From the NCBI GenBank assembly GCA_045596005.1, contig JAZOBQ010000016.1, forward strand, positions 1,783 to 65,782: a stretch of 64,000 nt of DNA, read 5' to 3'. Origin of the DNA: Oscillospiraceae bacterium. GTDB lineage: Bacteria > Bacillota > Clostridia > Oscillospirales > Oscillospiraceae. Each line of letters opens with the position of its first letter. Position 1 is the first letter of the stretch. This document shows positions 17,802-36,036 of the stretch, piece after piece. The notes beneath the pieces were generated by a model, which saw nothing but the letters and a program-made list of their open reading frames with translations, searched no databases and was not told where the DNA came from. Position numbers and translations under genes: made by a program.

Positions 17802-17830
17802 TTATACACGGCTACGGAGGAGATGTTACA
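17802..17830 (-). promoter_or_regulatory. island promoter motif copy A (TGTAAC-N15-GTGTATAA)
   Basis: The minus strand reads TGTAAC ATCTCCTCCGTAGCC GTGTATAA. It lies in the gap between the PP2C stop (17844) and the small membrane ORF (17745). Confidence 0.5.
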
Positions 17831-18585: not shown

Positions 18586-18614
18586 CATACACGGCTTAAT
18601 GATCGTTTGTTACA
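18586..18614 (-). promoter_or_regulatory. island promoter motif copy D (TGTAAC-N16-GTGTATG)
   Basis: The minus strand reads TGTAAC AAACGATCATTAAGCC GTGTATG. It lies between the LRR lipoprotein stop (18638) and the PP2C start. The spacer is 1 nt longer than in the other copies. Confidence 0.4.
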
Positions 18615-20014: not shown

Positions 20015-21370
20015 TCAGATGGTGATATGCACAAATGTAAGGGTGGTGGAGCCGAGACGGATCTGATCTCCGCATTTGAGCTGAGCGGAAGTGCCGCGAG
20101 CGAGCTTGCTGCCATTCAGATAGCTGCCGTTGCCGCCCTCCGGACTTTCGTCGACGAGGTGGAAAGCGTCCCCACTGCGCCTTACAAGGGCGTGTGCGGC
20201 GCGGTGTATCTTTACGTCTGCCAGAGTGCCGTCGGGCCATTTGCTGTTTCGGTTCAAGGGCAAAGTCTCGCTTTCCAACAGCTTGACGGCACCACTGCTT
20301 CCGTTCATGAGCAAAGCCGCGAAGCCATTATCGAGTATTTTGCGTGCCTGCGCGCCGGTTACAAGAATGAGCGCTTCATCGTTGAGACGGAAAAGGGCAG
20401 GCGTTTCAAGCTGTATATGCTTGCCGGACTCAATCGCTTCACCCTTGATGAAAGTGCCGTTTGACGAACCGGAGTCTTTCAGGAAATATTTCTGATTATA
20501 CTGCAATATTTCCGCGTGGAGCTTGCTGATGGACTTGTTGCCCTCGATGACAATGTCGCACTTGATGGGAGAGCGGCCGATTATTGTCTGCGGCTTTTTC
20601 AGTATGTATGCCTTTTCTGCTGCCGGATGGAGCAAAACGGCTGGGATCTGGTTTACAACGCGGACGGTCGCGTCTGCGTCGGACTCATAACCGTCACAGA
20701 CGGTCATGTCGCCGGGATCGCACTCAAAAACTGTGTGGTTGTCGGCTTCATCGCCAAGATCCGCGTAAGAGTTGTTTTCCGGTTCCGGTTCGGGCTTGGA
20801 GAGATCCTTGAGCACGAAGTTTTTGATATCAAATGCCGGAGTTCGCTCCTTTTTCTGAACGGGAGCAGGCTCGTTTTTCGGCGGCTGCTCTTTTTGGGGC
20901 ACGGCATCCGGCTTGAGGCGCAGCGAGCCGGCCGGTGCTTTGCAGGCAGTAAATTCAGCGGTCTCGCAGAGCTTGGCGATGAGAGCGGCGTCGCCGGGAT
21001 AGTCGCTGCAGCGAAGATAATGAAGGTGGCTCAGCTGCATGCGCAGACCCTTGGGCAGCTCCGCATTGTCGATCAGAACGGGAATGACCTTCTTATTGCA
21101 TTTAAGTGCGTAGACTATCTCGCTTTTGCAGTTGTGGGAGAGACTGGAATCAGCGGAGATGAAAGCGACGACGACTTTGGCGTCTTCGAGATGACTTTCA
21201 ATGTTGTCCAGCCAGTCGTCGCCGGCGTGGTTTCCGTCATCATACCAGATGCGGTAGCCGCCTAGAACGACCTGCTCGAAAAAAGGATAGAGCTTTGCCT
21301 TGTCCTTGTGGCAATAACTCATGAAGATATAAGGTTCTTTTCCCTCATAGGGGATGGCGCGACAAATCAT
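20015..21370 (-). CDS. TIR domain protein with two C-terminal FHA domains
   Basis: 451 aa. The N-terminus 'YIFMSYCHKDKAKLYPFFEQVVLGGYRIWYDD..GDDWLDNIESHLEDAKVVVAFISADSSLSHNCKSEIVYAL' has the TIR_2 pattern, including the conserved Glu after 'C.SE'. FHA1 is 'IIGRS..CDIVI.GNKSISKLHAEI......FLKDSGSSNGTFI'. FHA2 is degenerate ('HLVDESPEGGNGSYLNGSKL'). The RBS overlaps the STAS stop. Confidence 0.85.
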   Translation of the reverse strand: MICRAIPYEGKEPYIFMSYCHKDKAKLYPFFEQVVLGGYRIWYDDGNHAGDDWLDNIESHLEDAKVVVAFISADSSLSHNCKSEIVYALKCNKKVIPVLIDNAELPKGLRMQLSHLHYLRCSDYPGDAALIAKLCETAEFTACKAPAGSLRLKPDAVPQKEQPPKNEPAPVQKKERTPAFDIKNFVLKDLSKPEPEPENNSYADLGDEADNHTVFECDPGDMTVCDGYESDADATVRVVNQIPAVLLHPAAEKAYILKKPQTIIGRSPIKCDIVIEGNKSISKLHAEILQYNQKYFLKDSGSSNGTFIKGEAIESGKHIQLETPALFRLNDEALILVTGAQARKILDNGFAALLMNGSSGAVKLLESETLPLNRNSKWPDGTLADVKIHRAAHALVRRSGDAFHLVDESPEGGNGSYLNGSKLARGTSAQLKCGDQIRLGSTTLTFVHITI

Positions 21371-21762: not shown

Positions 21763-24714
21763 TCATTCCGCTATCTGACGGCTTGCAAGGGCATAAAACA
21801 TTCCGTTTTTGTCCTGCATCAGGGAGTCATAGCTGCCCTCCTGAATCACTTCGCCGTCGTTCATAACAATGATGCGGTCGCAGTTTTTGATGGTGCTGAG
21901 TCGGTGTGCAACGACTATTCTTGTGACCTTCATTTTGTCGAGGCTACTGCTGACAGCGGCCTGGGTCATATTATCAAGAGCGCTGGTCGCCTCGTCGAAA
22001 ATCAGTATTTTCGGATTGCCGCAGATGGCGCGTGCTATAAGTATTCGCTGCTGCTGGCCGCCGGAAATGGTGCTGCAGTTTTCGCTCAGCATTGTGTGAA
22101 GTCCCATGGGCATCTGAGCGATATCCTCTTTGAGACCGACCTGCTGCACAACTTCGTTTACGCGGGCAAGCTTGGCTTCGGGAGCGGTTATGGTGATATT
22201 CTCGTAAATCGTGCCGGAAATGAGCCTTCCGTTCTGGAGTACAACGCCGAGCTGACGTCGGTATGCGCCCTTGTTGATGGAACGCAGGTCTTTTTTGTCG
22301 ACCGTTACCATGCCGCTTTGAGGAGCTTCGAAGCCGAGAAGAAGCTTGAGCAAGGTGGATTTTCCGCAGCCGGAGGGGCCAACGATGCCGACGTATTCGC
22401 CGGGACGGATATCAATGGAAATGTCGTTGAGGACATTTTTGCCGCCCTTGTCATAGGCAAAGCTGACGTGCTCAAGGCTGAGTCCGCCGCTGAGCATGCC
22501 GGGCATTTCCTTCGATTCGTCATCTTCGGGCACTGTGGAGAAAACGGGCCAGAAGCGCATGATCTCGTTTCGCTCCTTGAAGAGCTGCATGGCTTCACCG
22601 ACGAGTGAGTCAAGTGCGCCGGTGAAGGCGCCGAAAGCGGAGTTGAAAGCGACAAAGGTGCCGACGGAAATGCTTCCGAAATCAAGCTTTCTGATAATGT
22701 ACCAGTAAAGCACCATCGAGAAAACGGACTTGATAACGGTGGAGATCGCCTCTTCAACGGAGATGAGGCGGTTGACGCGGATCTCCTCGTACTGCTGACG
22801 GGCGTAGGGGCGCATGAAAGACAGCAGCGCGCGTTCTTCGACTCCTGCCATGCGTATCTTGTCAACACCGCTCAGATACTGATAAAGCTTGCTTCCGGAC
22901 TCGGACTCCGCCTCCGCGATGCGGAGCTGAGCCTTGTTCACGGTGGCGGTGATAGCCACGACGATGATGAGGTAAACGGCGTATATTCCGAGGCTGACTC
23001 CCGTGAGTTTGCCGCTGTAGCTGAACATACGGATAAGGTAAAACACGGAGAAAACAGCGGAAATGCCGCTGACGATCAATGTGTTTGCATAAGCGGAGGC
23101 GGTTTGTCCAATGCCGGAAACGCGTCCGGCGAGGTCGGCGCTGTCATAGGCGCGGAAGAAAGATTCCGGCAGGTGGAACAGACGGTGGTAAACCGCGTTT
23201 TGCAGTTCGTTGCCGACCCGACTCGTCATACGGTATGCGAATAGGTTTTTGACGATGGAGAAAGCAACGTTGCCTATCATAAAGGTGAGCATAACAAGAC
23301 AAAGCTGGGTAAGATTGCCGATGTTGCCCACGGGAATATAGTCGTCATATATCATTCCGTTGAGCGTGGGGATAAGCACGCCTATCAGCGAGCATAAGAT
23401 GACAAGAACGATATACGGTCTGAGGTCGCGGGGCTTGATGCTTTTTTTGCAGAAGCTGATTACGTCCTTTTTGTTCAGAGACTTCAGCGGAAGCGTTCTG
23501 CCGATGGACCAGGCCTGGGGCGAGATCTGCTGCGCAAGCTCGGGTGTGAGCGGAGAGATGCTGTCATCGGAGCAGCGAAAAAACATATATTTTCCCTTTT
23601 TGTCGGGCACGACAGCGACGGTTTCTTTGTCCAGCGTGCCGACAAGTCCGCCGCAGTCGGATTTATACCACTCCGCGTCGAGAACGACCTTTCTGCAGAT
23701 GAAATTCGATGCGCGTGCGATCTCACTGAGCTCGGGATTCTTGCCGCAGCGGGTGTGAAGCTCGTCGGCCTTTATAAGTGAGATGCCGCTATGTCTGCAC
23801 ACAAACTGGAGAGCCTGATAGTAGTCGTTTCCGCTTTGCTCGGACTGGCCGAGATCGGAAAAGGTGTCTTTCAGTACGTTTACGACCTTTTGGCGGGACT
23901 CACTGTCTGCGCTGTCGGCTTTGATGATGAAGCCTTTGTCCTTGACAACGATCTGCTTCGTGTAAAACTCAATGAGACTGTTTTCGAAGCCTTCCTGCTC
24001 GTATGTGGAAATACCGCGGCGCATAAGGAACTCTCTGTGCAGTTCGGCGGTCGCGCCTCCGGCCACGGGCGAGAGTACAGCGTCATCTCCGGAGGTCTTG
24101 ATCTGCAGACGCCAGTTTTTGTGGTTTATATCCCTGAAAACAAGCGCAGGGATCAATTTCTGCTCGTCTCCGGATTTGAGCTCGCAATAGAAAACGGGTT
24201 TGCCTGCCCGTCCGTTTTCCAAAGGGACTATGGAGACAAAAACCTCGCCTTTTTCAAGGAGATAGGCTTCGCCTGTCTCCCGGGAAAGAAAGGTGTCCGT
24301 GCTGGAGAGGATGATCTTTTCGCTGAGACGGCAGCGTTCATAATAGTCGAGCAGACTTCCTGCAAAACCGAGACTGTCAAAGCCGGAGATTTCCCTGCGG
24401 CCGAGAAAGTTTTTGTAAAGTACGCTCGTGGCGCTGTTGTGGGATACGCTGAGCATGGCCTCGCCGCCCTCAGCCTTTATGAGCAGATACCAGCTGCGCT
24501 GAAGCTCGTCCTCATGGGCGAGCGAAGGAACGGCTCTTTGCCTGTCGCTGTCCTTGACGGAGGCGTAGAAACAGGCCTCGCCGTATTTTCCGTTTTCAAC
24601 AGGGATGATATATACAAGAACTTCTCCCTTTTTTACGCGGTAGACCGCGTTGGGAGACTGGGAGAGGATATACTCATTTTCGGCCAAAACGATTTCGTTT
24701 GTGTTTTCGTTCAT
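21763..24714 (-). CDS. NHLM/NHLP-type bacteriocin export ABC transporter (permease/ATPase) with duplicated N-terminal beta-barrel module and a Cys-less C39-like domain
   Basis: 983 aa. Walker A 'GPSGCGKST', signature 'LSGGQQQR' and a 6-TM exporter core. The N-terminal ~260 aa are two copies of a ~115-aa module ('KKGEVLVYIIPVENGKYGEACFY' / 'EKGEVFVSIVPLENGRAGKPVFY'). Confidence 0.9.
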   Translation of the reverse strand: MNENTNEIVLAENEYILSQSPNAVYRVKKGEVLVYIIPVENGKYGEACFYASVKDSDRQRAVPSLAHEDELQRSWYLLIKAEGGEAMLSVSHNSATSVLYKNFLGRREISGFDSLGFAGSLLDYYERCRLSEKIILSSTDTFLSRETGEAYLLEKGEVFVSIVPLENGRAGKPVFYCELKSGDEQKLIPALVFRDINHKNWRLQIKTSGDDAVLSPVAGGATAELHREFLMRRGISTYEQEGFENSLIEFYTKQIVVKDKGFIIKADSADSESRQKVVNVLKDTFSDLGQSEQSGNDYYQALQFVCRHSGISLIKADELHTRCGKNPELSEIARASNFICRKVVLDAEWYKSDCGGLVGTLDKETVAVVPDKKGKYMFFRCSDDSISPLTPELAQQISPQAWSIGRTLPLKSLNKKDVISFCKKSIKPRDLRPYIVLVILCSLIGVLIPTLNGMIYDDYIPVGNIGNLTQLCLVMLTFMIGNVAFSIVKNLFAYRMTSRVGNELQNAVYHRLFHLPESFFRAYDSADLAGRVSGIGQTASAYANTLIVSGISAVFSVFYLIRMFSYSGKLTGVSLGIYAVYLIIVVAITATVNKAQLRIAEAESESGSKLYQYLSGVDKIRMAGVEERALLSFMRPYARQQYEEIRVNRLISVEEAISTVIKSVFSMVLYWYIIRKLDFGSISVGTFVAFNSAFGAFTGALDSLVGEAMQLFKERNEIMRFWPVFSTVPEDDESKEMPGMLSGGLSLEHVSFAYDKGGKNVLNDISIDIRPGEYVGIVGPSGCGKSTLLKLLLGFEAPQSGMVTVDKKDLRSINKGAYRRQLGVVLQNGRLISGTIYENITITAPEAKLARVNEVVQQVGLKEDIAQMPMGLHTMLSENCSTISGGQQQRILIARAICGNPKILIFDEATSALDNMTQAAVSSSLDKMKVTRIVVAHRLSTIKNCDRIIVMNDGEVIQEGSYDSLMQDKNGMFYALASRQIAE

Positions 24715-24731: not shown

Positions 24732-26906
24732 TTAAATATTCTGTACGAAGGTTCTGTAAATGCCTTCTTCCTGCATCAGTGATTTGTGGGTGCCGCGCTG
24801 GACTATCTTGCCGTTTCTCATGACAACGATCTGGTTGCAGTCGCGGAATGCGCTCAGACGGTGGGCGACGATGATGCAGGTGATGCCGCGGCGTCTTATG
24901 TTGCTGAGCACCTGTTTTTCGACTACGGGGTCGAGCGCGGAAGTGGCCTCGTCCATAACGAGAATACTGGGGTTTGTGGCAAGGGCGCGTGCGATCTCAA
25001 GGCGCTGACGCTGACCTCCGGAAAGATTCATGGCGTTTTCGTTAAGCACATAATCGTAAGCGCCGGGACAGCTTATGATGAAATCGTGGATGCAGGCGTC
25101 CTTGGCGGCGAGGATCATATCCTCCTCCAGAATGGCTGAATTCCACATCGTGAGATTATCGCGGATGCTGCCGGAGAAGAGTGTGATATTCTGGCTCACT
25201 GTGGCCACGCTGGCATTGAGGCAGCTTTTGGATATCGTTTCGATGGGTGCGCCGTCGAGAAGGATCTGACCGCCCCAGGGATGATAAAGACCGCTCACCA
25301 GCTTCGAAACCGTGGACTTGCCGCAGCCGGATGGACCGACAAAGGCGATGCTCTCGCCGCTGTAAAGATGGAAACTGAACCCTTCGACAAGTGCGGGTTT
25401 GAGCGCGCTGTATCCAAAGGAAACGTCGCGCAGTTCGATCTCGCCGCTGAGTTTTTTCTGTGCGGAGCGGACGGAGCTCTGCTCATAGCGAGCGTCTTCG
25501 GGGTATTTCTGAACGTCCTCCACACGCGTGATGCTGGCTTTCATGGTCTGGATCTTCTGAGCAAAGGTGACGAGTTTGTTAACGGGCTCGATGAATGAGT
25601 CGAAGAGGGAGCAGAATGCGGTGAGACCACCGAGACTCAGACTTCCGGTGATGACAAGGATACCGCCGACGAGCAGATGCAATATGTCGGTGATGTTGCC
25701 CGCGGTTTCGGGGACTGCGTTCAGAACACGCTGGAAAGCGCTCTGCTTTTGCTCAAGGTTGGAGTGCTTGACCTGATAGCCGAGTACGCGGGAGACATAT
25801 TCATTTTCGGCGCCGGAGGCTTTGAGCGTGTCGGTGATGCTAAGTCCGGCACAGACCGCGCCGTAAAGCTTGCCGCCGCTCATCTGCTGCTTGATGGAAG
25901 ATTCGGAAATGAATCTGCGGCTGAGTACAACAACGGCTATGCAGACCGCAACGTTGAGAAGACCGATGAGCGTCATCAAAGGGCTGTAAAACAGCAAAAC
26001 TATGAGATAAAAAGCCGCAACGATTATGTTCAGAACTGTTTCCGCAAGGTCACCTGCGAGAAACGCGCTGACTTCGGTGTTGCTGTTCATTCGGCTGACG
26101 AGATCGCCGGCATAGCGCTGGTCGAAAAAGCTCATGGGAAGATGCAGCATATGGGTCAGAAACTTCACTCCGGAGGTGAGTGTAAGCTTGCTGCGGAGTT
26201 TCTGGAGAATGAGGTCTCTGTAATAATGCAGACCCAGCTTGAGCGCAGCCAGCAGTCCCATGAACACGAGAATTTTCGTGAGCCAGTCCGTGTAACCGGC
26301 CGCAAGAATGTCATCGATGAACATCTGCGACAATACGGGCAGGACGAGGCCGGGGAACACCATGAGAAGTCCTATGTAGAAAAGTTTGAACAAAACGCCG
26401 TACTGTCCGCTCAGCCTCTGGCGGAGCATATCCCATGCGGTGTTTTGCTTTTTTTCTTTTTCAAAAGCATCTGTAAGCATAAATGTGAGCACAACGCCGG
26501 TGAAACCCTCGTCGAACTCCTCCCATGTCAGCCTGCGGCGGCCCACAGCGGGGTCGTTGAGATAGACGTATTCTTTTTTGTTTTTGCCGCTGCCTTTGGA
26601 CTTGAAACCTTCGAGCACAACAAAGTGGCAGAAGTTCCAGTGGACGATGCAGGGCATGTCAAATTCGCGGAGAGCTTCCGGCTCTTTGCGGAAACCTCTG
26701 CATTCAAGACCATATTTCTTGGCGGCTCGCATGATATTGCCGGCGTTGCAGCCGTCACGAGAAACGCCGGTTTCTATTCGCATCTGTTCCAGAGGGAGAA
26801 ATTTGCCGAAATAGGAGAATATCATCGACAGCGATGCAGCCCCGCATTCGGTAGCTTCCATCTGAAAGACGCTGGGTGTCTTTCTGTAATTGGCCATATC
26901 AGTCAC
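24732..26906 (-). CDS. peptidase-containing ABC transporter (C39 double-glycine peptidase + exporter), NHLM type
   Basis: 724 aa. The N-terminus 'PSVFQMEATECGAASLSMIFSYFG' carries the catalytic Cys of the C39 domain. Walker A 'GPSGCGKST' and signature 'LSGGQRQR'. Confidence 0.9.
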   Translation of the reverse strand: MTDMANYRKTPSVFQMEATECGAASLSMIFSYFGKFLPLEQMRIETGVSRDGCNAGNIMRAAKKYGLECRGFRKEPEALREFDMPCIVHWNFCHFVVLEGFKSKGSGKNKKEYVYLNDPAVGRRRLTWEEFDEGFTGVVLTFMLTDAFEKEKKQNTAWDMLRQRLSGQYGVLFKLFYIGLLMVFPGLVLPVLSQMFIDDILAAGYTDWLTKILVFMGLLAALKLGLHYYRDLILQKLRSKLTLTSGVKFLTHMLHLPMSFFDQRYAGDLVSRMNSNTEVSAFLAGDLAETVLNIIVAAFYLIVLLFYSPLMTLIGLLNVAVCIAVVVLSRRFISESSIKQQMSGGKLYGAVCAGLSITDTLKASGAENEYVSRVLGYQVKHSNLEQKQSAFQRVLNAVPETAGNITDILHLLVGGILVITGSLSLGGLTAFCSLFDSFIEPVNKLVTFAQKIQTMKASITRVEDVQKYPEDARYEQSSVRSAQKKLSGEIELRDVSFGYSALKPALVEGFSFHLYSGESIAFVGPSGCGKSTVSKLVSGLYHPWGGQILLDGAPIETISKSCLNASVATVSQNITLFSGSIRDNLTMWNSAILEEDMILAAKDACIHDFIISCPGAYDYVLNENAMNLSGGQRQRLEIARALATNPSILVMDEATSALDPVVEKQVLSNIRRRGITCIIVAHRLSAFRDCNQIVVMRNGKIVQRGTHKSLMQEEGIYRTFVQNI

Positions 26907-27735
26907 CCCAGATATCGCTGAGCTTGGAGAAAAGTTTGGTGATGGGGGCGACCTCGTCGGTCACTATTCTGGCGGTGACGAGACTGCCGTTTTGTACATT
27001 GACGGTGGAACCCTTGTCGTTGGACCAGTAGTAGCCGCTGAGGGTATTGGCGTCGGGGTAAAGCTCACATGCGACGGCTACAACTGCACCGTCGCGCACG
27101 AATATGGATTCAAGGTTGTTGCCGCTGCCTATGACGCTGGCCATGGCTTCGCTGGGGGTCGCATAGGCGTCGATATTGATGACACGGGCGACCATATTGC
27201 CGTAGGAACTGCTGTCGAGGGAGTCAAGCGTGACATTTACCTGCATGCCGCGCTCGAGTTTTTTCGCGTTGGCAAGAGGAACGTAGCAGACGATCATCTG
27301 CGAAGCCTGGGAGGTGGGGGATACGCGGATTATATCCTTTCCAGGAGTGAACTTGTCGTCATTTTGGACTGCGATCTCGGAAACGACACCGACCTGGTCT
27401 GAATATACGACAACGACTTCGTTGGAGGAATTGCGGTAGGTCATGACAGGGTCGCCGAGATGCACTTCGTCTCCGGCGCGGACGCGCACGGATACGACGG
27501 TACCAGCATCCTGAGTATAGACGGAGTTGGATCCGACTACAGAACTGACAAGGCCCTTCGCGGTGACCGTCTCGGGGATAGTTCCGACAAAGGACCAGAT
27601 AAGGCTTATTACAATAATAAAAGTAATGCCGATAAGAGCGAGCCAGGACATTGGTGAGGTGATTTTGAGCACCTTGTCGAGCTGCTCGGGATTGGACATT
27701 CTTTCGAGAGATGATTTTCTGTAGAGATCAGCCAT
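26899..27735 (-). CDS. HlyD-family secretion adaptor (NHLM bacteriocin system type)
   Basis: 278 aa. One N-terminal TM segment ('WLALIGITFIIVISLIWSFVG') followed by a beta-rich barrel-sandwich region. It overlaps both neighbouring genes by 8 nt. Confidence 0.8.
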   Translation of the reverse strand: MADLYRKSSLERMSNPEQLDKVLKITSPMSWLALIGITFIIVISLIWSFVGTIPETVTAKGLVSSVVGSNSVYTQDAGTVVSVRVRAGDEVHLGDPVMTYRNSSNEVVVVYSDQVGVVSEIAVQNDDKFTPGKDIIRVSPTSQASQMIVCYVPLANAKKLERGMQVNVTLDSLDSSSYGNMVARVINIDAYATPSEAMASVIGSGNNLESIFVRDGAVVAVACELYPDANTLSGYYWSNDKGSTVNVQNGSLVTARIVTDEVAPITKLFSKLSDIWGD

Positions 27736-28270
27736 GGTTTATGTACTCCTTCCAGTAGGCGTCGTTGAAAGAGGCGAGCTTGTCCAGCGCGCGGGACAGC
27801 AGAACGCGGGCGTTTCCGGGACTGATGCCGAGCTTCTTGGCGATTTCGTCACTGGAGCGATTCTCAAAATAGCGCATCATGACGATCTGCTGCTGGCGTT
27901 CGGGCAGCTGCTTAATGGCCATCATAAGGGCGCTGTGAAGCTGTTCAAGATAAATGCCCTCGTCCATATCTATGCTCTGGTCGCGCATGGTATCGGAGAC
28001 CGACTCAAAATCAACATAGGAGACATGGTCGCGGTAATAGTTCTTGAGGCGGCTGTTGACGATGAGATAAAGCCATGTCGTCAAAGAGCTTTTTTCGGGG
28101 TCGTAGTCATCATAGTGGCTGTAGCAATATATAAAGACTTCGCTCGTGAGGTCTTCGGCATCAGCATAGTTGGAGATCCTTTTATGAACATAGCCGAGAA
28201 CACGGTCAAAATTGGCGCTGTAAAAATCCTCGTATGCGGGTTTTTCATTTTTCGGCAAAAGTTTCAGCAT
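27728..28270 (-). CDS. ECF-like (two-domain) sigma-70 family RNA polymerase sigma factor
   Basis: ORF 27728..28408 trimmed to ATG 28270 (MLKLLPKNEK). Region 2: 'DAEDLTSEVFIYCYSHYDDYDPEKSSLTTWLYLIVNSRLKNYYRD'. Region 4: 'LPERQQQIVMMRYFENRSSDEIAKKLGISPGNARVLLSRALDKL'. It is the first gene of the minus-strand arm. Confidence 0.85.
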   Translation of the reverse strand: MLKLLPKNEKPAYEDFYSANFDRVLGYVHKRISNYADAEDLTSEVFIYCYSHYDDYDPEKSSLTTWLYLIVNSRLKNYYRDHVSYVDFESVSDTMRDQSIDMDEGIYLEQLHSALMMAIKQLPERQQQIVMMRYFENRSSDEIAKKLGISPGNARVLLSRALDKLASFNDAYWKEYINHG

Positions 28271-28286
28271 TTTTTTCACCCCAAAG

Positions 28287-28315
28287 TGTAACGTTTCGTT
28301 TTCTGCTGTGTAATA
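28287..28315 (+). promoter_or_regulatory. island promoter motif copy C (TGTAAC-N15-GTGTAATA)
   Basis: The plus strand reads TGTAAC GTTTCGTTTTCTGCT GTGTAATA. It lies 46 nt upstream of ATG 28361 and is divergent from the sigma gene. Confidence 0.5.
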
Positions 28316-28360
28316 AGAGACAGAATCATAATATTGACTTGGGAAAGGATGCGAAAAATT

Positions 28361-28555
28361 ATGGCAAGGAACATTGAAAAGCTGCTTCGTCTGGTCGCGG
28401 ATTATCACGAATTCTGCGGCGATGCCGAGGTGAAGCGCGGCGCGAGAGAGCTGGACGAACTCAGCCTTGAAGAACTCGATTTCATCGCTGCTGCCGGCAT
28501 GCTCCCCTTAAAGGAAGACGAAAAAGACGACGAAAACAAAAAGACGGTTTTCTGA
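28361..28555 (+). CDS. 64-aa peptide with double-glycine-type leader signature and a short acidic tail
   Basis: ORF track 28334..28555 uses a TTG start. ATG 28361, with GGAAAGGA about 11 nt upstream, is preferred. Product: MARNIEKLLRLVADYHEFCGDAEVKRGARELDELSLEELDFIAAAGMLPLKEDEKDDENKKTVF. 'DELSLEELDFIAAAG' parallels 'DELSEEDLDDVSGG' of P3. Confidence 0.5.
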   Translation: MARNIEKLLRLVADYHEFCGDAEVKRGARELDELSLEELDFIAAAGMLPLKEDEKDDENKKTVF

Positions 28556-28901
28556 TTTTTGTAAAAAACTGGATATGCTCACGAACAGTTAATAATTATA
28601 ATCATATTAGCACAAAAAGGTACCCAATGCAACAAATCCCTTGGTGTTTTCTACAAATAAGGGCAGCGGAAGAAGGCAGTCTTACACCGGCATTTTTCCG
28701 GAGCTGAAGGGTATGACGGCAGATAAAATCAAGACTTAGAACATGATATACGGCACACTTTCAAGCAGATGATTTCCGGAAGGAAGTCACCTGCGTGTTT
28801 CCGTTTCCGGAGAAAGCGGCTTTTACGGGGAATACCGGGGCTGAGAGGATTCGGTAGGGAAGGACGCAGCCAAACAGCGTCTAAAAGGAGATGATATTCA
28901 T

Positions 28902-30275
28902 ATGCTGGAGATAAACTCCCTTGTCATGGAACACTACAAAATACTGGGTGTGGCCGGAAAGGGCGGAATGGGACGGGTATACCACGCGCTTGACATACGC
29001 GATGGAAGCCATTGGGCGATAAAGGAAGACCTTGATGCTGCCGGAGGCGATTTTCTGCGCGAAGAGGCGGAGCTTCTGGCGCAGCTATCTCATCCTGCTC
29101 TGCCTGTCAGCCGTGGGATTTGCAGCTGGCAGGGAACACAGTACATGACCATGCAGTTTATGTCGGGAGAAACTCTTGCGGGAATGTTGAAAAAGCAGGA
29201 AAAGTATCCGGAAACCCAGGTGCTGGACTGGTTTTTGCAAATATGCGACGTTCTGAAATATCTCCACAGCCGACCGAAACCTGTTGTCTACCGCGATCTC
29301 AAGCCGTCGAATATAATAATCGATGAAGAGAAACGGATAAGGATAATTGACTTCGGAATAGCCGAGGAATATACAAGACAAGACGGCGGGGAACAGATGC
29401 AAAAAGGCGGACTCACAAAAGGTTTCGCTGCGCCGGAGCAGTATAACCGCCGCTTCAAAGCCGATGTGCGTACCGACATCTACGCCCTTGGAGTAACGGT
29501 TCACTATTTGCTGACGGGCAAAAATCCCACAAAACCGCCGTATGAATTTCTCCCGGTCAGAAAGCTTGTGCCGGATGTCTCGCCGGCTATGGAGGAGATA
29601 GTTAAAAAATGCCTTCAGCCAAACCCGGATATGCGCTATGCCGGTGCGGACGAGCTGTATGACGAGCTGAAGAATATCGACAAAACCAACCGTCGGATGC
29701 GCAGAAAAAAAAGCATGCGAATCATAGCCGCGCTTGCAGTTATCGCCATTGTCGCGGCTGCGGTGTTCATTTTGGAGAGCAAGCTTGAAAGCGGCAGACA
29801 AAAGGAGATCGACGAGTATTATTCGCTTGTCGAGGCTTCGGAAGTCGCGGCTTTGAATGAGGATTTTATTCTTGCAGCGGAGAAAGCCGAAAAGGCGATA
29901 GCCATGCAGCCGAATGAGATCAGTGCCTATCTCGCGGCGGCGAACTGCCTCGTGCAGCAGGGAGATTTCGAAGCGTGCCGAAAATACGTGAGTGCGGAAA
30001 TTCTTGACCGTTTTCCCGAATGCTACGAAAACGAGGACTTCCTCGAGCTGATGGCACGGATGTATGACAGAAGCGGAGATGCAGAGAATGCGCTGTATTA
30101 TTATCTGAGCTTGTGTGAGATTAACGGCGCAAGAGCCGATCACTGGCTGGCACTGGCGGACTGCCAGATAAGACTCGGGAAAAACGAAGACGCGAAGACC
30201 AGCTTGAATAATTACCTGAACGCGGGAGGAGACGAGACCGTGTATCGGGAGCTGTCGGCCGGACTCGCCGGATAA
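28902..30275 (+). CDS. Hanks-type Ser/Thr protein kinase, membrane-anchored, extracellular TPR-like domain
   Basis: 457 aa. Contains 'GKGGMGRVY', 'AIKE', 'VVYRDLKPSNIII', 'DFGIAEE' and 'GFAAPEQ'. TM segment 'IIAALAVIAIVAAAVFIL' is followed by a helical repeat region. Confidence 0.9.
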   Translation: MLEINSLVMEHYKILGVAGKGGMGRVYHALDIRDGSHWAIKEDLDAAGGDFLREEAELLAQLSHPALPVSRGICSWQGTQYMTMQFMSGETLAGMLKKQEKYPETQVLDWFLQICDVLKYLHSRPKPVVYRDLKPSNIIIDEEKRIRIIDFGIAEEYTRQDGGEQMQKGGLTKGFAAPEQYNRRFKADVRTDIYALGVTVHYLLTGKNPTKPPYEFLPVRKLVPDVSPAMEEIVKKCLQPNPDMRYAGADELYDELKNIDKTNRRMRRKKSMRIIAALAVIAIVAAAVFILESKLESGRQKEIDEYYSLVEASEVAALNEDFILAAEKAEKAIAMQPNEISAYLAAANCLVQQGDFEACRKYVSAEILDRFPECYENEDFLELMARMYDRSGDAENALYYYLSLCEINGARADHWLALADCQIRLGKNEDAKTSLNNYLNAGGDETVYRELSAGLAG

Positions 30276-30318
30276 AACGGCGGGACGCCGATGCAGATAG
30301 GAAAGAAGGAGGCTAACC

Positions 30319-31764
30319 ATGAAACTGACGAAGGCTATGCTTGCCCTCACGCTGCTGATTGCGCTGATAATGGCCGCGGCCGGGGTTGCTGCGATGTCAG
30401 CTCCGGATACGAACACAGCGGAGGAAATAGATTCTAAACATTATGTAAACCAGGGCGACTATTACTATGAGGAAGGCGAGTACCTCATGGCGCTCGCTTG
30501 CTACAACAGTGCGCTGGCGATAAATGAAACCGATATAGCTGCTCTGCACGGAGCGGCAAAGAGCAACAACGCGCTGGAGTATCTGGACGACGCTCTGGAA
30601 TGCTATGATAAACTTGTGGGGCTTGCCCCGGACGTTGCCGAGATACGGCTCGAACGGGTGAATACCCTTCTCATATCCGGCAGACTCGATGAGGCGAAAA
30701 ACGCTCTGGAGGAGGCTATGAGCGTCTTCGACGATGAGAAAATGGAACAGCTTTACCGCCAGATGGTTGTGGAGTCTCCGGAGGTGGGTCTCAAGCCGGG
30801 CACATATGACAGCTATCAGCTTCTCCACATGAGCACGGATAGTCCCAACGCGCTTATTTACTATACCACCGACGGGAGCGAACCTAACCTCGGTTCGGAC
30901 ATCTGTGTGGACGGAGTGGTTATCAGTGCGCCGGAAACTTTGCTCAAGGTCAAATGCATCAACTACCTTGGCTATGAAAGCGAGACTGTGGAGCTGAGCT
31001 ACACGGTCACGGTGCCGGTGGAGGAAGTGTTCAAGAACGATGAATCCGCGTTCGCGCTGGCAGTAAGGACCCTCATGGGACGCAGCGAGCGACAGGCCAT
31101 ATATAACTATGAGCTGGCACAAATCCGCGAGCTTTACATAGTAGGAAAGGGCCGTTACAGCGACATCGAGGATGCAACGTTCCGCAACGATATGTACAGC
31201 TCAAGCTCTTATCTGAACCACTTTACGGATAGAGGCAGCTGTGACCTTGACTATCTCAGGTACACACCTTTCCTTGAAACGCTGGGCGTATGCTGGCAAA
31301 AGGGAGTAGATCTCGAACCGATCACCGAACTTGAGTATCTGAAAAATCTTTCTCTGCTGAATAACGGTATCACCGACATCTCGGCTCTTGCGGAAATAGA
31401 CTCGCTCGAAAAGCTCGCACTTGGTTGGAACAAGATAAGCGACGTCGAGCCTTTGCGCAACATGACAAATCTTGTTTCCCTGGGACTTTGGAACAACAAT
31501 ATCAGCAGTATCGACGCACTGTCCGGTCTTAATAAACTTCAGTATCTGGATGTAAGCTATAATAAGCTGACAAATGTTGACGCCGCGGCGCAGCTTGGCG
31601 AGCTTAAGGAATTCTGGGCGGCCAACAATATGCTCACAAACATAGATGCCCTTGATCCGGACGGCGTACTGCGCATCCTGATGATATCCGGCAATTCGCT
31701 GGAAGGATATCGGGAGTGGAGAGAAACTCATCCGGATCTGGTTCGAAGCGATTACGTGGAATAA
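30319..31764 (+). CDS. membrane-anchored TPR / Fn3-associated-like / internalin-type LRR protein
   Basis: 481 aa. N-terminal anchor 'AMLALTLLIALIMAAAGVAA' and TPR-like helices. 'IYYTTDGSEPNLGS' resembles the chitobiase C-terminal-like motif. About 6 repeats of 22 aa follow ('LKNLSLLNNGITDISALAEIDS'). Confidence 0.8.
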   Translation: MKLTKAMLALTLLIALIMAAAGVAAMSAPDTNTAEEIDSKHYVNQGDYYYEEGEYLMALACYNSALAINETDIAALHGAAKSNNALEYLDDALECYDKLVGLAPDVAEIRLERVNTLLISGRLDEAKNALEEAMSVFDDEKMEQLYRQMVVESPEVGLKPGTYDSYQLLHMSTDSPNALIYYTTDGSEPNLGSDICVDGVVISAPETLLKVKCINYLGYESETVELSYTVTVPVEEVFKNDESAFALAVRTLMGRSERQAIYNYELAQIRELYIVGKGRYSDIEDATFRNDMYSSSSYLNHFTDRGSCDLDYLRYTPFLETLGVCWQKGVDLEPITELEYLKNLSLLNNGITDISALAEIDSLEKLALGWNKISDVEPLRNMTNLVSLGLWNNNISSIDALSGLNKLQYLDVSYNKLTNVDAAAQLGELKEFWAANNMLTNIDALDPDGVLRILMISGNSLEGYREWRETHPDLVRSDYVE

Positions 31765-31782
31765 ATGTACGGGAGGATAGCT

Positions 31783-33870
31783 ATGGATTTTAATATGCAA
31801 ACTATATTGCCGATCGCTGTCGCTGCCGACTGCATTATTCTGCTTATACTTGCCGCAGCCAGAAAATGCACCAAAAAGACCTTTTTTGTGATTGCTTTGA
31901 TCACGGCCTTGTGCTGCGGAGCATTTGCCTTTGTCACCAAAGACGAGGAGGCCCAGACCAGAAGCGAGACGGAGATAAAGGGACACATCTATATGGCTTC
32001 TCAGCTGCTGGAGCAGTTTTGTCCCGATGAGGCTCTCGTCGCTTTGGGACAGATAAGCGAGGCAGAGGGCGAAAATTACGGAGTAAACGGACTGCGTGCT
32101 CTGGCTTACAATCATTGCGGAGCATATTCCGCGGGCGCTTACCTGACGAATGATGCGGCGGAAGAGGAACTTCTGGCGCTGCACTCAGCCTGCGTCAAAA
32201 AAGAGCGCTGCGATGAGGAGATTGCGGGCAGGATCATACTGAACAGCATGGAGCTTCTGGCGCTTTCGGGTCAGGAAATGGCACGCTATGACGCTGAAAT
32301 AGAGCTGCGATACGGTATGGTGACGATGGCTGACGACAGCAGCGACCCAGTGCTGCAGATAAAAGCCGCGCTTTTCAATGAGGAATACGACAAAGCATAT
32401 CAGCTTACTGAGGCTCTGGCTGCGGAAGGCACTCTCGCGGACGATATCCTCATGGCGGAGATGTATGTCAAGGATTTCGGCAAGAGGACTCTGGCCGAGG
32501 GCGACCGGGCGTTCGACGAACTGCTCACGAAGGCAACGGATTTGCAGATCAGACTTAACAGGATCGCTGCTGAGAACGGTGTGGACAGTCAGGAATACGA
32601 AAACTGCCGCGCGGACTACGCTCTGGCTTTGATCGAACTCGACGCGGAAAGCTCCAAACGAGCAATAAACTATCTTGAACTGTGCTACAGCGAAGGCACG
32701 GTTTATGAACTTGCTTATCACCTGCAGATGGCAAGGCTGTATTTTGGTGCAGGAGACAGAACCGAAGCGGCAAAGCAGCTCTACGCAGTGTTCGCAGAAA
32801 AAAATCTGGACAAGAACCAGTGGCTTGCTGTAGAAGTTGAGGTTTTGCGAGATGCCTTCCTCAACGGAACGGACAATATGGAAAACCCGGAATTTGACAA
32901 TCTTTATGAGAAACTTCTGGCCTGCCTATACAGAGAGGTATTCAAATACCAGGACACAGATACGCAGTTTCGTGCATTCCTGAGCGAATATCTGAAGGAT
33001 ATCTTCAGTGGTATTTACATAGGCCGTCCCGATGTAACCGAATTCCCGACTGTAAAGGTGTCCATATCCACAAGCTTTGACTATGAGCTCACACCGGAGA
33101 ATATGATACTGACCGATACTCAGTGCGAGATCTCCGAGTTCAGCGCGGTGGAGAATGACGACGCGCTGATGTCCATCTGCTTCGTTCTGGACAGAAGCGG
33201 CAGTATGATGGGCTCATATCTGGCAAGTGCCAAGCAGGCGATCAAGGGTTTTGCCACGAATATTGACGGCAGTACGCTTGCGGCGCTGGTGTCGTTCGAC
33301 CATGAAGCGCGCGTGGATTGTCCGATAGTCGACTCGGCATATATGGTGGCAGCACAGGTGGATAAGATCGAAGCCACCGGAGGCACAAGCATAGCCGCCG
33401 GATTGATGTGCGCCGCGGACGAGCTCGCCAATGCCAAAGGCAGAAAGGTCATCATACTTCTTTCCGACGGTGTGGACGGCAGTCCCGAGCTGCTAAACAG
33501 AGCTTTGTCTCAGCTTCAGATGGAAGGAATAGTTGTCTACTCGATCGGTTTGCCCGGATGTGATGAGAATTATCTTTTCAAAATCGCGGAGGATACCGAG
33601 GGTACCTACTTCCCCGCGAACAGCGTAGCTGACCTGAGTTCGATTTATACCGAGATCAGAGGCTCACTCAGGAATTCCTTCACCCTCACCTATGAAGCGA
33701 ACGATGACGGACAGACGGAAAGAAGTATCTGGGTCGAGGCAGTGGATTCCATGGCGCAGTCCAGAAGAAAGTACACAAGCGATGTGTCCAAAGCGCAATA
33801 CAGCTATATCAACGACGTGCAGATATCTGATTTCTTCAAACAGATCGGCGGCACTTTGGGAGGTGAATGA
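31783..33870 (+). CDS. membrane-anchored von Willebrand factor A (vWA) domain protein
   Basis: ORF 31765..33870 trimmed to ATG 31783 (GGGAGG RBS; MDFNMQ). One TM segment, a long helical region, then vWA with the MIDAS motif 'FVLDRSGSM', 'GGTSIAAGL' and 'ILLSDGVDG'. Confidence 0.85.
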   Translation: MDFNMQTILPIAVAADCIILLILAAARKCTKKTFFVIALITALCCGAFAFVTKDEEAQTRSETEIKGHIYMASQLLEQFCPDEALVALGQISEAEGENYGVNGLRALAYNHCGAYSAGAYLTNDAAEEELLALHSACVKKERCDEEIAGRIILNSMELLALSGQEMARYDAEIELRYGMVTMADDSSDPVLQIKAALFNEEYDKAYQLTEALAAEGTLADDILMAEMYVKDFGKRTLAEGDRAFDELLTKATDLQIRLNRIAAENGVDSQEYENCRADYALALIELDAESSKRAINYLELCYSEGTVYELAYHLQMARLYFGAGDRTEAAKQLYAVFAEKNLDKNQWLAVEVEVLRDAFLNGTDNMENPEFDNLYEKLLACLYREVFKYQDTDTQFRAFLSEYLKDIFSGIYIGRPDVTEFPTVKVSISTSFDYELTPENMILTDTQCEISEFSAVENDDALMSICFVLDRSGSMMGSYLASAKQAIKGFATNIDGSTLAALVSFDHEARVDCPIVDSAYMVAAQVDKIEATGGTSIAAGLMCAADELANAKGRKVIILLSDGVDGSPELLNRALSQLQMEGIVVYSIGLPGCDENYLFKIAEDTEGTYFPANSVADLSSIYTEIRGSLRNSFTLTYEANDDGQTERSIWVEAVDSMAQSRRKYTSDVSKAQYSYINDVQISDFFKQIGGTLGGE

Positions 33871-33871
33871 G

Positions 33872-34444
33872 ATGAGTAAGTTTTTGCGGTTTATCACCAC
33901 TCTTACGGTGGGATTCGGTTTGCTGCTGCTGTATGCATATCTCGTTTATCAAAACAGCGTGGACAAGATGGAGCTGCTGAGACAGCCAAGTTACTATACA
34001 CTTGAAAACTACTGGTACCTGCTTGTCGCGGGATGCGGCTGTGTAGGATTTGCGATAATAAGCTGTTTTTGTGCGTGGAACAAGAAGCTTGATAAGAAGA
34101 TAGTTGTGCTGCCCAATGCTGTCGCGGCGGAAAACGAAGAGCTTCTCGACTGGCTGACGGGCTCGTCTCTCGACACTGCGCGAAACGCAAAACGCAGCGA
34201 GACCTCAGCTGATATTAAGTCGGCAGAGAGCAGCGGGCGAAAGGCGGAGGAAAACTCTCCGATTTCGAAAAAGAGCGCCGCAGTGCACGGCGATACTGAA
34301 CTAAGCTCAATGGATTGCGGCACGGTTTATGAAAACGATGCGGAGGGCACTGTGCTTACTCAGCTCGATGATGGCCTTACCGTGCTTTCGGACGAGGGCG
34401 AGACTGTGTTCGATAAAGACGACACGGTCCTGCGTTCGGAATAA
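33872..34444 (+). CDS. two-TM membrane protein with acidic tail carrying five Thr-Val motifs
   Basis: ORF 33692..34444 trimmed to ATG 33872 (GGAGG 8 nt upstream; one nt after the vWA stop). TM segments are 'FITTLTVGFGLLLLYAYLVY' and 'YLLVAGCGCVGFAIISCFCAW'. Tail: 'GTVYENDAEGTVLTQLDDGLTVLSDEGETVFDKDDTVLRSE'. Confidence 0.7.
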   Translation: MSKFLRFITTLTVGFGLLLLYAYLVYQNSVDKMELLRQPSYYTLENYWYLLVAGCGCVGFAIISCFCAWNKKLDKKIVVLPNAVAAENEELLDWLTGSSLDTARNAKRSETSADIKSAESSGRKAEENSPISKKSAAVHGDTELSSMDCGTVYENDAEGTVLTQLDDGLTVLSDEGETVFDKDDTVLRSE

Positions 34445-34459
34445 AAGGGGGTGCAGCAA

Positions 34460-36016
34460 ATGAAAACGAAAGCCTTGCTTTTTGTAATACTGATGCTTGC
34501 ACTCGCTGCAATGCTCACGGCCTGCGCCGCACCTGAAGCGGATAACATTACAGAGCTGCCTGCGGCAGCCGAGGATGTCAGCGGCATAGTGGCAGAAGCG
34601 GACGCACTTTTCGAAGAAGGAAAGTTTTCCGAGAGTATGGAACGCTATCTCGAAGCTATGGAGAAAAACATCAGAGACGTAGATGCGCGTCTGGGCGTTG
34701 CGAAGTGCCAGGTGGAGATGGAAAACTACGCCGTTGCCATTGTCAACATTTCGATGATACGCGAGCTGGCACCGGACAGAATTGAAATATGCGACCTGTA
34801 TCTGCGTATGGCCGAGAAAAGCGGAGAGAGCCGATATGCCAGAACGGCGGTGGAGATAGCCGAAGAATACGGCCACGACACCATTATGGAGAAAATACCG
34901 GTCGCGCCGAGTTTCTCGCATGAGGCAGGAGCTTACTCCGAGCGCATTGTGATGGAAATAAGCCATCCTGACCCCGATGCAAAGATTTATCTCACACTGC
35001 ATAACGATACAAACAGCTACTTTTATTTTTACGATACAGTTTATCATTATCCGATAAAGCTTGTCCGCGGATTGAATACGGTCGAGGCATACGTAGTCAA
35101 AAACGGCATCCCAAGCGAGATGGCTGTAGTAGAATACAACATAGATTATCCCTGCGAGGAAGTCAGCTTCGCAGAGCCGCTTATCGAAAAGATCGCTCGC
35201 AACATACTCGGAAAATACGACGGGCCTATCACGAATTATGATTGCGAGGAAATGGATCATCTCGACTGGTATTCTCTGATGGACGAGAATATGAACTATA
35301 ACAAGCTAATGAGCATGAGGGTAGATACTATCGAAGACCTTCAGTATTTTCCGGTGATCACTTATCTTAACCTGCAGTATCAGGACAAGGTGAAGGATTT
35401 CTCTCCGTTGACTTATTGCCCGATGCTCTATCAGATAGAACTAAACGGCTGCAGATTCACAAACACAGATATTATCCGTTATGTTCCCTATGCGGTGTAT
35501 ATCGGTCTGAATGACAATGAACTGACGGATATATCCGCACTTTTGGAGAGAAACGACATTTGGGGACTGTCGGTTCAGCGAAACAAGAACCTTGTGGTGG
35601 ACGAGATCGTCAGGAACAATAAGGAGCTTTACTATCTCGATATTGACGATACACAGCTCGAGGATTACAGCGTGCTTACTGAGCTTGAGCAGCTTGAGCG
35701 GCTTCAGATCTACGGTGTAAGCAACATAGACTATGAAGTTTTGGGAGAACTGACAAGTCTTGTTGACCTCGATATTTCCTATAATTACGAACGCTTTGAT
35801 TACAGAAACAGCATAGACGATCTGTCCTTCCTGCCGAAACTGCAGAAGCTCGAATTTCTGTATCTGAACGGCGTAAACGATCCTGCGGATCTTGATTACA
35901 TTGCTCAGCTCCCCAATCTAACGAACCTTTATTTGTATGAATGCGATGCAACAGAAGATCAGGAAGCGATGGAGGCACTGAAGATGGCGCTGCCCAACTG
36001 TTCCATATACTATTGA
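34460..36016 (+). CDS. lipoprotein, TPR / Fn3-associated-like / internalin-type LRR (paralog of 30319..31764)
   Basis: The ORF track start 34451 is GTG. ATG 34460, with AGGGGG upstream, is preferred (MKTKALLFVILMLALAAMLTAC, lipobox LTAC). It has the same three-part architecture as 30319..31764. Confidence 0.8.
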   Translation: MKTKALLFVILMLALAAMLTACAAPEADNITELPAAAEDVSGIVAEADALFEEGKFSESMERYLEAMEKNIRDVDARLGVAKCQVEMENYAVAIVNISMIRELAPDRIEICDLYLRMAEKSGESRYARTAVEIAEEYGHDTIMEKIPVAPSFSHEAGAYSERIVMEISHPDPDAKIYLTLHNDTNSYFYFYDTVYHYPIKLVRGLNTVEAYVVKNGIPSEMAVVEYNIDYPCEEVSFAEPLIEKIARNILGKYDGPITNYDCEEMDHLDWYSLMDENMNYNKLMSMRVDTIEDLQYFPVITYLNLQYQDKVKDFSPLTYCPMLYQIELNGCRFTNTDIIRYVPYAVYIGLNDNELTDISALLERNDIWGLSVQRNKNLVVDEIVRNNKELYYLDIDDTQLEDYSVLTELEQLERLQIYGVSNIDYEVLGELTSLVDLDISYNYERFDYRNSIDDLSFLPKLQKLEFLYLNGVNDPADLDYIAQLPNLTNLYLYECDATEDQEAMEALKMALPNCSIYY

Positions 36017-36036
36017 CGGGGTGAATCTCTCAGAAT

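Follow-up and report, generated by a model that had tools for sequence, protein, structure and literature searches.

A small Ala-Ala pseudo-leader protein paired with an ECF-type sigma factor: a possible anti-sigma-like regulator linked to peptide export

Introduction

The window analysed here is a 64,000-nucleotide (nt) stretch of contig JAZOBQ010000016.1 from an Oscillospiraceae bacterium, and the element in question is a small gene within it. Its 64-amino-acid (aa) product, P0001, carries a segment resembling the leaders of double-glycine (GG) peptides, with Ala-Ala where those have Gly-Gly. The gene is divergent from that of an extracytoplasmic function (ECF)-type sigma factor, behind which lie the genes of an ATP-binding cassette (ABC) exporter with a peptidase domain, and the same window encodes four Nif11-type GG peptides (Table 1). 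The associations of the small gene with the sigma factor and with the exporter are non-random, and that with the sigma factor is the tighter of the two. We tentatively favour a reading in which the protein is an anti-sigma-like regulator that couples transcription to export, and we weigh it against a peptide signal, a plug of the exporter, and a sigma partner whose likeness to leaders is ancestral.

The small gene and its product

The open reading frame (ORF) described in an initial annotation of this DNA is present on the forward strand with the residues quoted there, and its full translation is MARNIEKLLRLVADYHEFCGDAEVKRGARELDELSLEELDFIAAAGMLPLKEDEKDDENKKTVF. It is a real gene under purifying selection. 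Close DNA homologues occur in L009, a locus of an Oscillospiraceae metagenome-assembled genome, and in L040, a metagenome contig of 1.2 kb. Against these two, synonymous sites are saturated (pS 0.72–0.97), compared with a pN of ∼0.32, and dN/dS is 0.17 where it is computable. Conservation of the ORF, which the initial annotation had proposed as a check, is borne out both by this selection and by the family described below.

In an AlphaFold2 model based on the family alignment, residues 3–18, 22–32, and 36–45 form helices and a disordered tail follows, with a mean predicted local distance difference test score (pLDDT) of 76.5 for the whole model and of 51–63 per 10-residue block in the tail. 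The segment that had been singled out as leader-like, ELSLEELDFIAAAG, is found in the product, and the tail that had been called short and acidic, GMLPLKEDEKDDENKKTVF, is 19 aa long with a net charge of −2. With cleavage placed after A45, the annotated hydrophobic residues are indeed present at −4 (I42), −7 (L39), −12 (L34), and −15 (L31); the one at −15 is not conserved in the family, which mostly has Ser, Asp, Glu, or Pro there. A signal-peptidase AxA site was considered for the same residues and rejected, as the invariant positions are −2 and −1 while −3 is variable, the pattern of C39 peptidases rather than a −3/−1 pattern, and the protein has no hydrophobic core region.

A family with an invariant Ala-Ala pair

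A word-indexed search with the 64-aa protein returned three relatives only, and a single-protein search of 61 related genomes with P0001 gave chance-level matches (E 0.02–0.95) inside long frames. A family profile seeded with four sequences, the ORF and its three relatives, matched 103 of 1.84 billion representative proteins at E ≤ 1e-3, 29 of them at E ≤ 1e-10, and 100 of the 103 matches are 51–84 aa in length. Searches with this profile found the family in 11 of 401 genomes of the window’s order and in 5 of 399 of its class, counts that are floors, as a search starting from the sigma factor found four that had initially been missed. Metagenome scans with one seed alignment returned only L040, and those with another (A5) returned no match.

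The two long matches inspected of the three are a spurious repeat match (P0076, 565 aa) and a repeat protein (P0093, 265 aa); the third is P0085 (1823 aa). P0093 carries LFG.L.DDELSDEELH.IAAA about five times in tandem, a layout resembling a polyprotein built from the same pseudo-leader-like motif, and by eye its hydrophobic N-terminus resembles a signal peptide. None of the 103 matches was seen to be fused to a sigma factor or a C39 domain. The family has no match in Pfam, NCBIfam, PDB sequence profiles, or Foldseek, while the ESM Atlas returned clusters of “hypothetical protein” and one cluster of lantibiotic leaders with a score of 0.84, which is an unconfirmed lead.

The anatomy of the family was counted over 102 aligned representatives. 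The N-terminal helix has the consensus x-I-E-x-L-L-R-L-V-A-D-Y-x-x-F, in which F18 is invariant and L9 and D14 are nearly so. After ∼15 variable residues comes the pseudo-leader, with the consensus D-E-L-S-x-E-E-L-D-x-V-A-A-A. Position −12 is Leu in 91 members and Met in 8, −11 is Ser in 64, −8 is Glu in 71 and Asp in 25, −7 is Leu in 101, and −4 is Val in 61 and Ile in 38. Position −3 is Ala in 85 and otherwise Ser, Phe, Tyr, Asn, or Val, and positions −2 and −1 are Ala-Ala in all 102. The pair is also Ala-Ala in all 42 rows of an alignment that includes remote relatives. Across ∼100 clusters, positions −12, −8, −7, and −4 and the Ala-Ala pair are 94–100% conserved, whereas identity is otherwise 22% per column. 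The tail, which runs from 7 to 27 aa (median 16), is hydrophilic (mean grand average of hydropathicity −1.28) and rich in Lys, Pro, Glu, and Asp; its sole conserved feature is a proline at +4 (55 of 102), and tails are wholly diverged even between close homologues.

In one locus, L037 (2639–2848 and 2957–3163), a gene of this family adjoins a GG peptide gene (…DEDRLAKVVGG|…), and the N-terminal part of that GG peptide resembles the Ala-Ala protein (L..LSDS…DDRLSKLIG), giving the two the look of a paralogue pair. To judge by their sequences, this pair suggests that the Ala-Ala family may have arisen from a GG peptide gene.

Likeness to double-glycine leaders

The initial annotation had compared the segment with the leaders of GG peptides, and a profile-profile comparison agrees. 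When the family was compared by hhalign with the Nif11-type GG peptides of the window and of locus L028, its ELSxEELDxVAA aligned with the Nif11-type ELxEExLDxVSG in register, Ala-Ala on Gly-Gly, over 16 columns (probability 56%, E 1.1e-4). The alignment is limited to the last 16 columns of the Nif11 leader. The rest of that leader is absent, as the initial annotation had stated, and the Nif11 models TIGR03798 and PF07862 give no match to the family in Pfam and NCBIfam scans even at E 10 or 0.1.

The C39 domains of peptidase-containing ABC transporters (PCATs) recognise their substrates through the code L(-12)-x3-E(-8)-L(-7), with hydrophobic knobs at −4, −7, and −12, as set out in two studies (PMC6363468, PMC10885120). 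For LahT150, the last 13 leader residues are sufficient and changes at −3 are tolerated (PMC6363468). The family keeps this code under selection, and with it all the determinants on which LahT150 and PCAT1 depend: −12 is Leu, Met, Phe, or Ile in 102 of 102 members, −8 is Glu or Asp in 96, −7 is Leu or Met in 102, and −4 is Val, Ile, Leu, or Ala in 102. The scissile site differs. The canonical motif is GG, GA, or GS in the same sources (PMC10885120, PMC6363468), that is, Gly at −2 and Gly, Ala, or Ser at −1, whereas the family has Ala-Ala in 102 of 102. The cleft at the scissile site is described as very narrow, with cleavage strictly coupled to translocation in PCAT1 (PMC6959990), and in cyanobacterial GG proteins the secretion motif has been disabled by replacing GG with AA (PMC4997328).

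The initial annotation had regarded the Ala-Ala pair as a weakness of its proposal, an assessment that the family does not sustain. The pair is invariant, whereas the true GG peptides of the same loci keep Gly-Gly, including those of L054 with short hydrophilic cores. This speaks for a protein that is functionally distinct from ordinary cleaved substrates. The invariance argues that the protein has been selected not to behave like a substrate, and the close retention of the docking code speaks for continued contact of the third helix with a C39 domain. As 13 residues at the end of the leader are enough for LahT150 (PMC6363468), the N-terminal helix at residues 3–18 would be unneeded for recognition by C39.

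Pairing with a sigma factor and association with an exporter

Gene context was compared across 22 loci, consisting of the window, L009, L010, L011, nine loci from the window’s order, four from its class, L040, and four reached via the sigma factor. A sigma factor of the same clade is encoded next to the small gene or in its cluster in 20 of the 22 (L011 and L037 are the exceptions), which is the adjacency expected of an ECF anti-sigma gene; in the window it takes the form of a divergent pair with starts 90 nt apart, the sigma start having been set to match the homologous 180-aa proteins of L009 and L040. All three close loci (the window, L009, and L040) have this divergent layout, and in ∼13 remote loci the small gene comes first and either overlaps the sigma gene by 4 nt or lies 1 nt away from it. 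Loci with the pair span three distant groups, namely the window’s order, other members of the class, and Selenomonadaceae, and their other neighbours differ.

The pairing also holds when the search starts from the sigma factor, for which 252 homologues were found at E ≤ 1e-10. The clade (E ≤ 1e-35) is present in 17 of 401 genomes of the order, and in 14 of these the small gene lies beside the sigma gene or in its cluster; the three genomes without the small gene have the most distant sigma factors. No other candidate for an anti-sigma factor lies beside the sigma gene in the window, L009, L010, or L040.

After the sigma factor, the next commonest neighbour is the exporter, composed of the C39 ABC protein, a second ABC protein, and an HlyD protein, and both ABC proteins (ABC1 and ABC2) recur in related loci. 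The initial annotation had tied the small protein to the C39 ABC exporter, and the tie extends to other loci: a C39 domain was found in the fetched DNA of 10 of the 17 loci scanned, and by coordinates one also adjoins the pair in G121 and G267, well above the background of the order, where only 16 of 201 genomes have a TIGR03796 match over the cut-off. Five genomes without an exporter next to the pair were examined. In G820 and G821, the exporter is elsewhere in the genome. In Selenomonadaceae, the pair of small gene and sigma gene is present with the exporter located elsewhere. G600 has a full-length exporter match below the cut-off, and in G432 the exporter copy is cut by the end of the contig. 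G096, which is 97% complete, has no C39 domain at all, yet the pair of small gene and sigma gene is present.

Other neighbours vary. The initial annotation had placed the ORF at the head of a kinase/vWA gene arm, a position that is not conserved: the next gene is convergent in both L009 (a kinase-DUF285/LRR protein) and L040 (the tail of an LPXTG protein), and remote relatives have quite different neighbours. Among the neighbours found across the loci are an RsbW-like kinase, STAS proteins, SpoIIE-type phosphatases whose sensor parts are of the 5TMR-LYT or HAMP-like kind, true GG peptides that are Cys-rich or short and hydrophilic, giant surface proteins, a TIR-Sel1 protein, and housekeeping genes. 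In L024, L026, L029, L031, L036, L038, and L039, the exporter, the Ala-Ala protein, and the sigma factor share an operon with an RsbW-like kinase and a SpoIIE-type phosphatase that has a 5TMR-LYT or HAMP-like sensor. A STAS protein is also encoded in L036 and L031 and, by eye, a STAS-like ORF in L028. The phosphatase/RsbW-like operon of these remote relatives looks like a partner-switching module. Arrays of GG peptide genes lie directly downstream of the pair in L054 (2276–3246), L030 (4741–5192), L029 (8853–9230), and L051 (1991–3342), and their cores are either short, hydrophilic, and Pro-rich (16–23 aa) or Cys-rich, with CxxC, and ∼40–60 aa long. No sensor histidine kinase or response regulator was found among the Pfam-scanned proteins of the loci, the remaining ORFs having been judged by eye, and PF03047 (ComC) matched one of 102 members, at E 0.067.

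Promoter and neighbourhood in the window

The promoter motif that the initial annotation had placed near the ORF is real and ends 48 nt before the ATG. The motif GTAAC-N14-17-GTGTA has four sites in the window against 0.07 expected, and none of 100 shuffles reaches four. Besides the small gene, the sites precede GG peptide genes and a phosphatase gene (Table 1), and no GTAAC-N15-GTGTA was found in the window before the kinase gene at 28902 or the exporter operon. The motif also lies directly 5′ of the homologous small ORF in L009, L010, and L011, and 5′ of the Nif11 peptide genes of L028. The shared motif groups the small gene and the GG peptides in one regulon, presumably that of the neighbouring sigma factor, given the ECF-like shape of the −35 and −10 elements and the co-location of the genes.

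Table 1. Features of the small gene and of its surroundings in the window.
Feature	Position	Strand	Description
Small protein P0001, 64 aa	28361..28555	+	ATG-started, 64 codons; member of an unnamed sigma-coupled “Ala-Ala pseudo-leader” family
N-terminal helix, residues 3–18, NIEKLLRLVADYHEF	28367..28414	+	Best conserved region outside the pseudo-leader (L9, D14, F18)
Pseudo-leader, residues 31–45, LDELSLEELDFIAAA	28451..28495	+	Double-glycine recognition code, Ala-Ala at −2/−1
Variable hydrophilic tail, 19 aa here	28496..28552	+	Low pLDDT, unconserved
Divergent ECF-type sigma-70 family factor, 180 aa	27728..28270	-	Pfam Sigma70_r2/r4_2; TIGR02937
NHLM-type HlyD-family secretion protein	26899..27735	-	TIGR03794, 171.6 bits (cut-off 156.2)
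Peptidase-containing ABC exporter (C39 + ABC)	24732..26906	-	Pfam; TIGR03796, 935.9 bits
Second ABC exporter subunit (NHLM ABC2)	21763..24714	-	Long N-terminal extension; TIGR03797, 731.4 bits
GG peptides P1–P4	39424–39759, 39056–39406, 17261–17581, 16908–17225	-	Nif11-type
GTAAC-N15-GTGTA, ECF-type promoter motif of the small gene	28288..28312	+	Motif scan
Same motif	39818..39842	-	Motif scan; 5′ of the Nif11-type GG peptide genes 39424–39759 and 39056–39406
Same motif	17805..17829	-	Motif scan; 5′ of a small membrane-protein gene and GG peptide genes 17261–17581 and 16908–17225
Same motif	18588..18613	-	Motif scan; 5′ of the PP2C phosphatase gene 17844–18560 (-)

All three components of the NHLM exporter exceed the curated cut-offs in the window. 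LahT150 (6MPZ) is a close relative of the C39 domain (E 1.3e-47), and the alignment matches both the Gln/Cys motif and the His-containing motif WNFxHFVVL; in LahT, stabilisation of the oxyanion has been proposed for Gln21, and the inhibitor is covalently bound to Cys27 (PMC6363468). ABC2 extends at its N-terminus by ∼300 aa past the TIGR03797 model, a stretch without a Pfam match, and by eye its L009 orthologue has an internal duplication. The four other leader peptides of the initial annotation are present on the minus strand and have hydrophobic cores. A hydrophobic ORF of ∼50 aa with two spans (MKIKTLSFISDILIGG...), at ∼17600–17745 on the minus strand, is the first gene after the promoter at 17805–17829, ahead of two Nif11-type peptides, and may encode an immunity protein.

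Signalling and conflict-type genes densely flank the export module (17844–21370 on the minus strand and 28902–38969 on the plus strand). Past the exporter, the minus strand encodes, in order, a TIR-FHA protein, a BspA-type LRR protein, and a PP2C phosphatase. On the plus strand, a gap of 346 nt separates the small gene from a gene for a Ser/Thr kinase-TPR protein, which is followed by TPR-LRR, vWA, LRR, PP2C, and second kinase genes. The set holds two PP2C phosphatases and two Ser/Thr kinases, one kinase having an F5/8 domain of the kind that resembles NADase translocation domains. No intrinsic terminator was found in a search 3′ of the small ORF, so that read-through into the kinase gene is possible, and an Rfam scan of 28000–29100 gave no match. 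Logan contigs of the metatranscriptome run X9 cover 27902–28119, part of the sigma gene, and 28827–28956, the start of the kinase gene; the ORF is uncovered, and gaps between such contigs are uninformative.

A proposed anti-sigma-like regulator linked to the exporter

We propose that the 64-aa protein may be a three-helix, cytoplasmic, anti-sigma-like partner of the ECF-type sigma factor, with a pseudo-leader that would dock in the exporter peptidase and so couple transcription to export. This is the reading that we favour, although we put it at somewhat less than an even chance. The fallback of the initial annotation, a small cytoplasmic anti-sigma factor, stands in part: gene context fits it at least as well as the exported autoinducer that the annotation had preferred, and the protein has no recognisable anti-sigma domain. 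The N-terminal helix is conserved and yet unneeded for C39 and so calls for another partner, the only constant candidate being the sigma factor. Taken together, a sigma-factor partner in 20 of 22 loci, the invariance of Ala-Ala, the retained docking code, and the presence of the pair without a C39 domain in G096 favour an anti-sigma-like regulator.

In the proposed mechanism, the conserved N-terminal helix (LLRLVADYxxF) would hold the sigma factor. The third helix, a copy of a GG leader, carries the recognition code and would fit the hydrophobic groove of the C39 peptidase domain, and Ala-Ala in place of the scissile Gly-Gly would, from the published specificity, make it a poor or non-cleavable pseudo-substrate. 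When peptidase domains are free, they would capture the regulator, or slowly export or clip it, and the sigma factor would be released. The released sigma factor would then transcribe the Nif11-type GG peptide genes, and the regulator’s own gene, from the GTAAC-N15-GTGTA promoters. True GG peptides would compete for the exporter, so that the regulator would return to the sigma factor. The predicted outcome is that synthesis of precursors is matched to export capacity, as if a FlgM-type checkpoint or a NepR-type partner switch had been transferred to an ABC exporter. A bolder form of the proposal, which we think possible but rather unlikely, is that the family would be a new class of anti-sigma factors acting by leader mimicry, in which the uncleavable Ala-Ala tag lets the peptidase domain sequester or expel the inhibitor, so that transcription of bacteriocin-like and GG peptide genes is gated by the load on the exporter.

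Several points weigh against an anti-sigma-like role. Pfam, NCBIfam, and Foldseek searches gave no recognisable anti-sigma domain, such as a zinc-binding ASD of the RskA/ChrR type, and no match to a PDB sequence or fold. The RsbW-like kinase, STAS proteins, and SpoIIE-type phosphatase of the remote loci may be what actually controls the sigma factor, and in the window the Ser/Thr kinases, PP2C, and FHA proteins could take that role. In two of the 22 loci (L011 and L037), no sigma factor is adjacent. Expression dependent on the sigma factor and adjacency to a regulator gene would fit equally well with a comC-like pheromone gene. Finally, binding to the sigma factor, binding to C39, and the block of the window peptidase by Ala-Ala are inferred.

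Alternative explanations

The alternative that competes most directly is that of an exported signal, which we consider unlikely but well short of negligible. The exporter would cleave after Ala-Ala, or export the protein slowly, and the tail of 7–27 aa would be a strain-specific pheromone; membrane sensors would then activate the sigma factor, and the promoter would be autoinduced. The sensors would be the kinases and LRR proteins in the window and, elsewhere, the 5TMR-LYT/HAMP SpoIIE-type phosphatases with RsbW and STAS proteins, and some membrane-linked sensor module is indeed present in most loci, although the type of receptor is not conserved across them. The complete C39 recognition code and the small residues at −1 and −2 fit a substrate, as does enrichment of the NHLM exporter (10 of 17 loci, with G121 and G267, against 16 of 201 genomes). 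However, a cleaved substrate would be expected to have GG, GA, or GS at least sometimes, these being canonical (PMC10885120, PMC6363468), whereas Ala-Ala is found in 102 of 102 members and all remote relatives, and the change from GG to AA is on record as a disabling mutation (PMC4997328). Tails that diverge completely between close homologues recall pherotypes, but some are only 7–8 aa. The order of small gene then regulator gene resembles comC-comDE, and the sigma-type promoter of the small gene is common to GG peptides. A pheromone precursor leaves the conserved N-terminal helix superfluous, as leader recognition does not need it, and it does not account for the pair in G096, a genome without a C39 domain.

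A role confined to the exporter is improbable in our view. Here the protein would be a pseudo-substrate that plugs or gates the peptidase domain and so times or limits export, and the adjacency of the sigma gene would reflect co-regulation alone, without direct contact. The recognition code with its non-canonical scissile pair suits such a plug, and so does co-expression with the substrates from the same type of promoter; the strict coupling of cleavage and transport in PCAT1 (PMC6959990) implies that an uncleaved binder would stall the pump. A plug leaves unexplained the conserved N-terminal helix and the close link to the sigma gene, in many cases with translational coupling, where the exporter is elsewhere or was not found (L010, L031). 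The converse, a plain partner of the sigma factor (an anti-sigma factor or a co-factor) that is leader-like solely through its ancestry in a GG peptide gene and plays no part at the exporter today, seems to us quite improbable. It accommodates the pairing in 20 of 22 loci, the small gene of G096, and the GG-bearing paralogue beside the Ala-Ala gene in L037. However, a vestigial motif would decay, whereas −12, −8, −7, −4, and Ala-Ala are 94–100% conserved, and the exporter is strongly enriched nearby. An anti-sigma-like regulator with a pseudo-leader is therefore the reading we favour.

Relation to known systems and significance

The closest known relatives in form are the GG leader peptides of PCAT/AMS exporters (Nif11-type LahA with LahT, ComC/BlpC, and class II bacteriocins). 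They share with the family the amphipathic recognition helix with L-12, S-11, E-8, L-7, V/I-4, A-3, and small residues at −2 and −1, and the loci of the family have an NHLM-type C39 exporter with a peptidase near LahT150 and a promoter type shared with true GG peptides. The family differs in its invariant Ala-Ala, in the absence of a Nif11 domain, in the extra conserved N-terminal helix, and in a short, hydrophilic, unconserved tail that is unlike a bacteriocin core. Its constant neighbour is the sigma factor rather than the exporter or a histidine kinase/response regulator pair. The window holds all three components of the NHLM/NHLP bacteriocin export system (TIGR03794, TIGR03796, and TIGR03797); however, the matched NCBIfam models cover the exporter and the Nif11 leader only, with none for the small partner of the sigma factor.

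In regulatory logic, the nearest parallels are FlgM and NepR. FlgM is a small helical anti-sigma factor that is exported via the flagellar apparatus, which frees sigma-28, and NepR is an anti-sigma factor of ∼60 aa that is displaced by the sigma mimic PhyR. The Ala-Ala protein resembles both in its size, its helical and partly disordered nature, its genetic coupling to a dedicated alternative sigma factor, and its proposed control by export or partner switching. It differs from them in having no sequence or fold match to anti-sigma families, and the proposed releaser is the peptidase domain of an ABC exporter. In the searchable full-text literature, outside of which most subscription journals lie, we met with no account of this family, none of sigma-factor control via a mimic of a PCAT leader, and no precedent for a FlgM-style secretion checkpoint for ABC/PCAT exporters.

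Little is understood of how bacteria keep the production of toxic or signalling peptides in step with what a dedicated exporter can handle, and the control of the many ECF-type sigma factors that lack a recognisable anti-sigma factor is unclear. The family links both questions in a testable way, as a small protein that is genetically locked to a sigma factor carries a precise and apparently uncleavable copy of the exporter tag. If the protein is instead a signal precursor, Ala-Ala would be a natural PCAT site in a sigma-driven peptide-signalling circuit. If the favoured reading is right, the family would represent a new mode of sigma-factor regulation and would provide a natural pseudo-substrate with which to study or inhibit PCAT exporters such as LahT, which are in wide use for leader removal from RiPPs (peptides made by ribosomes and modified after translation).

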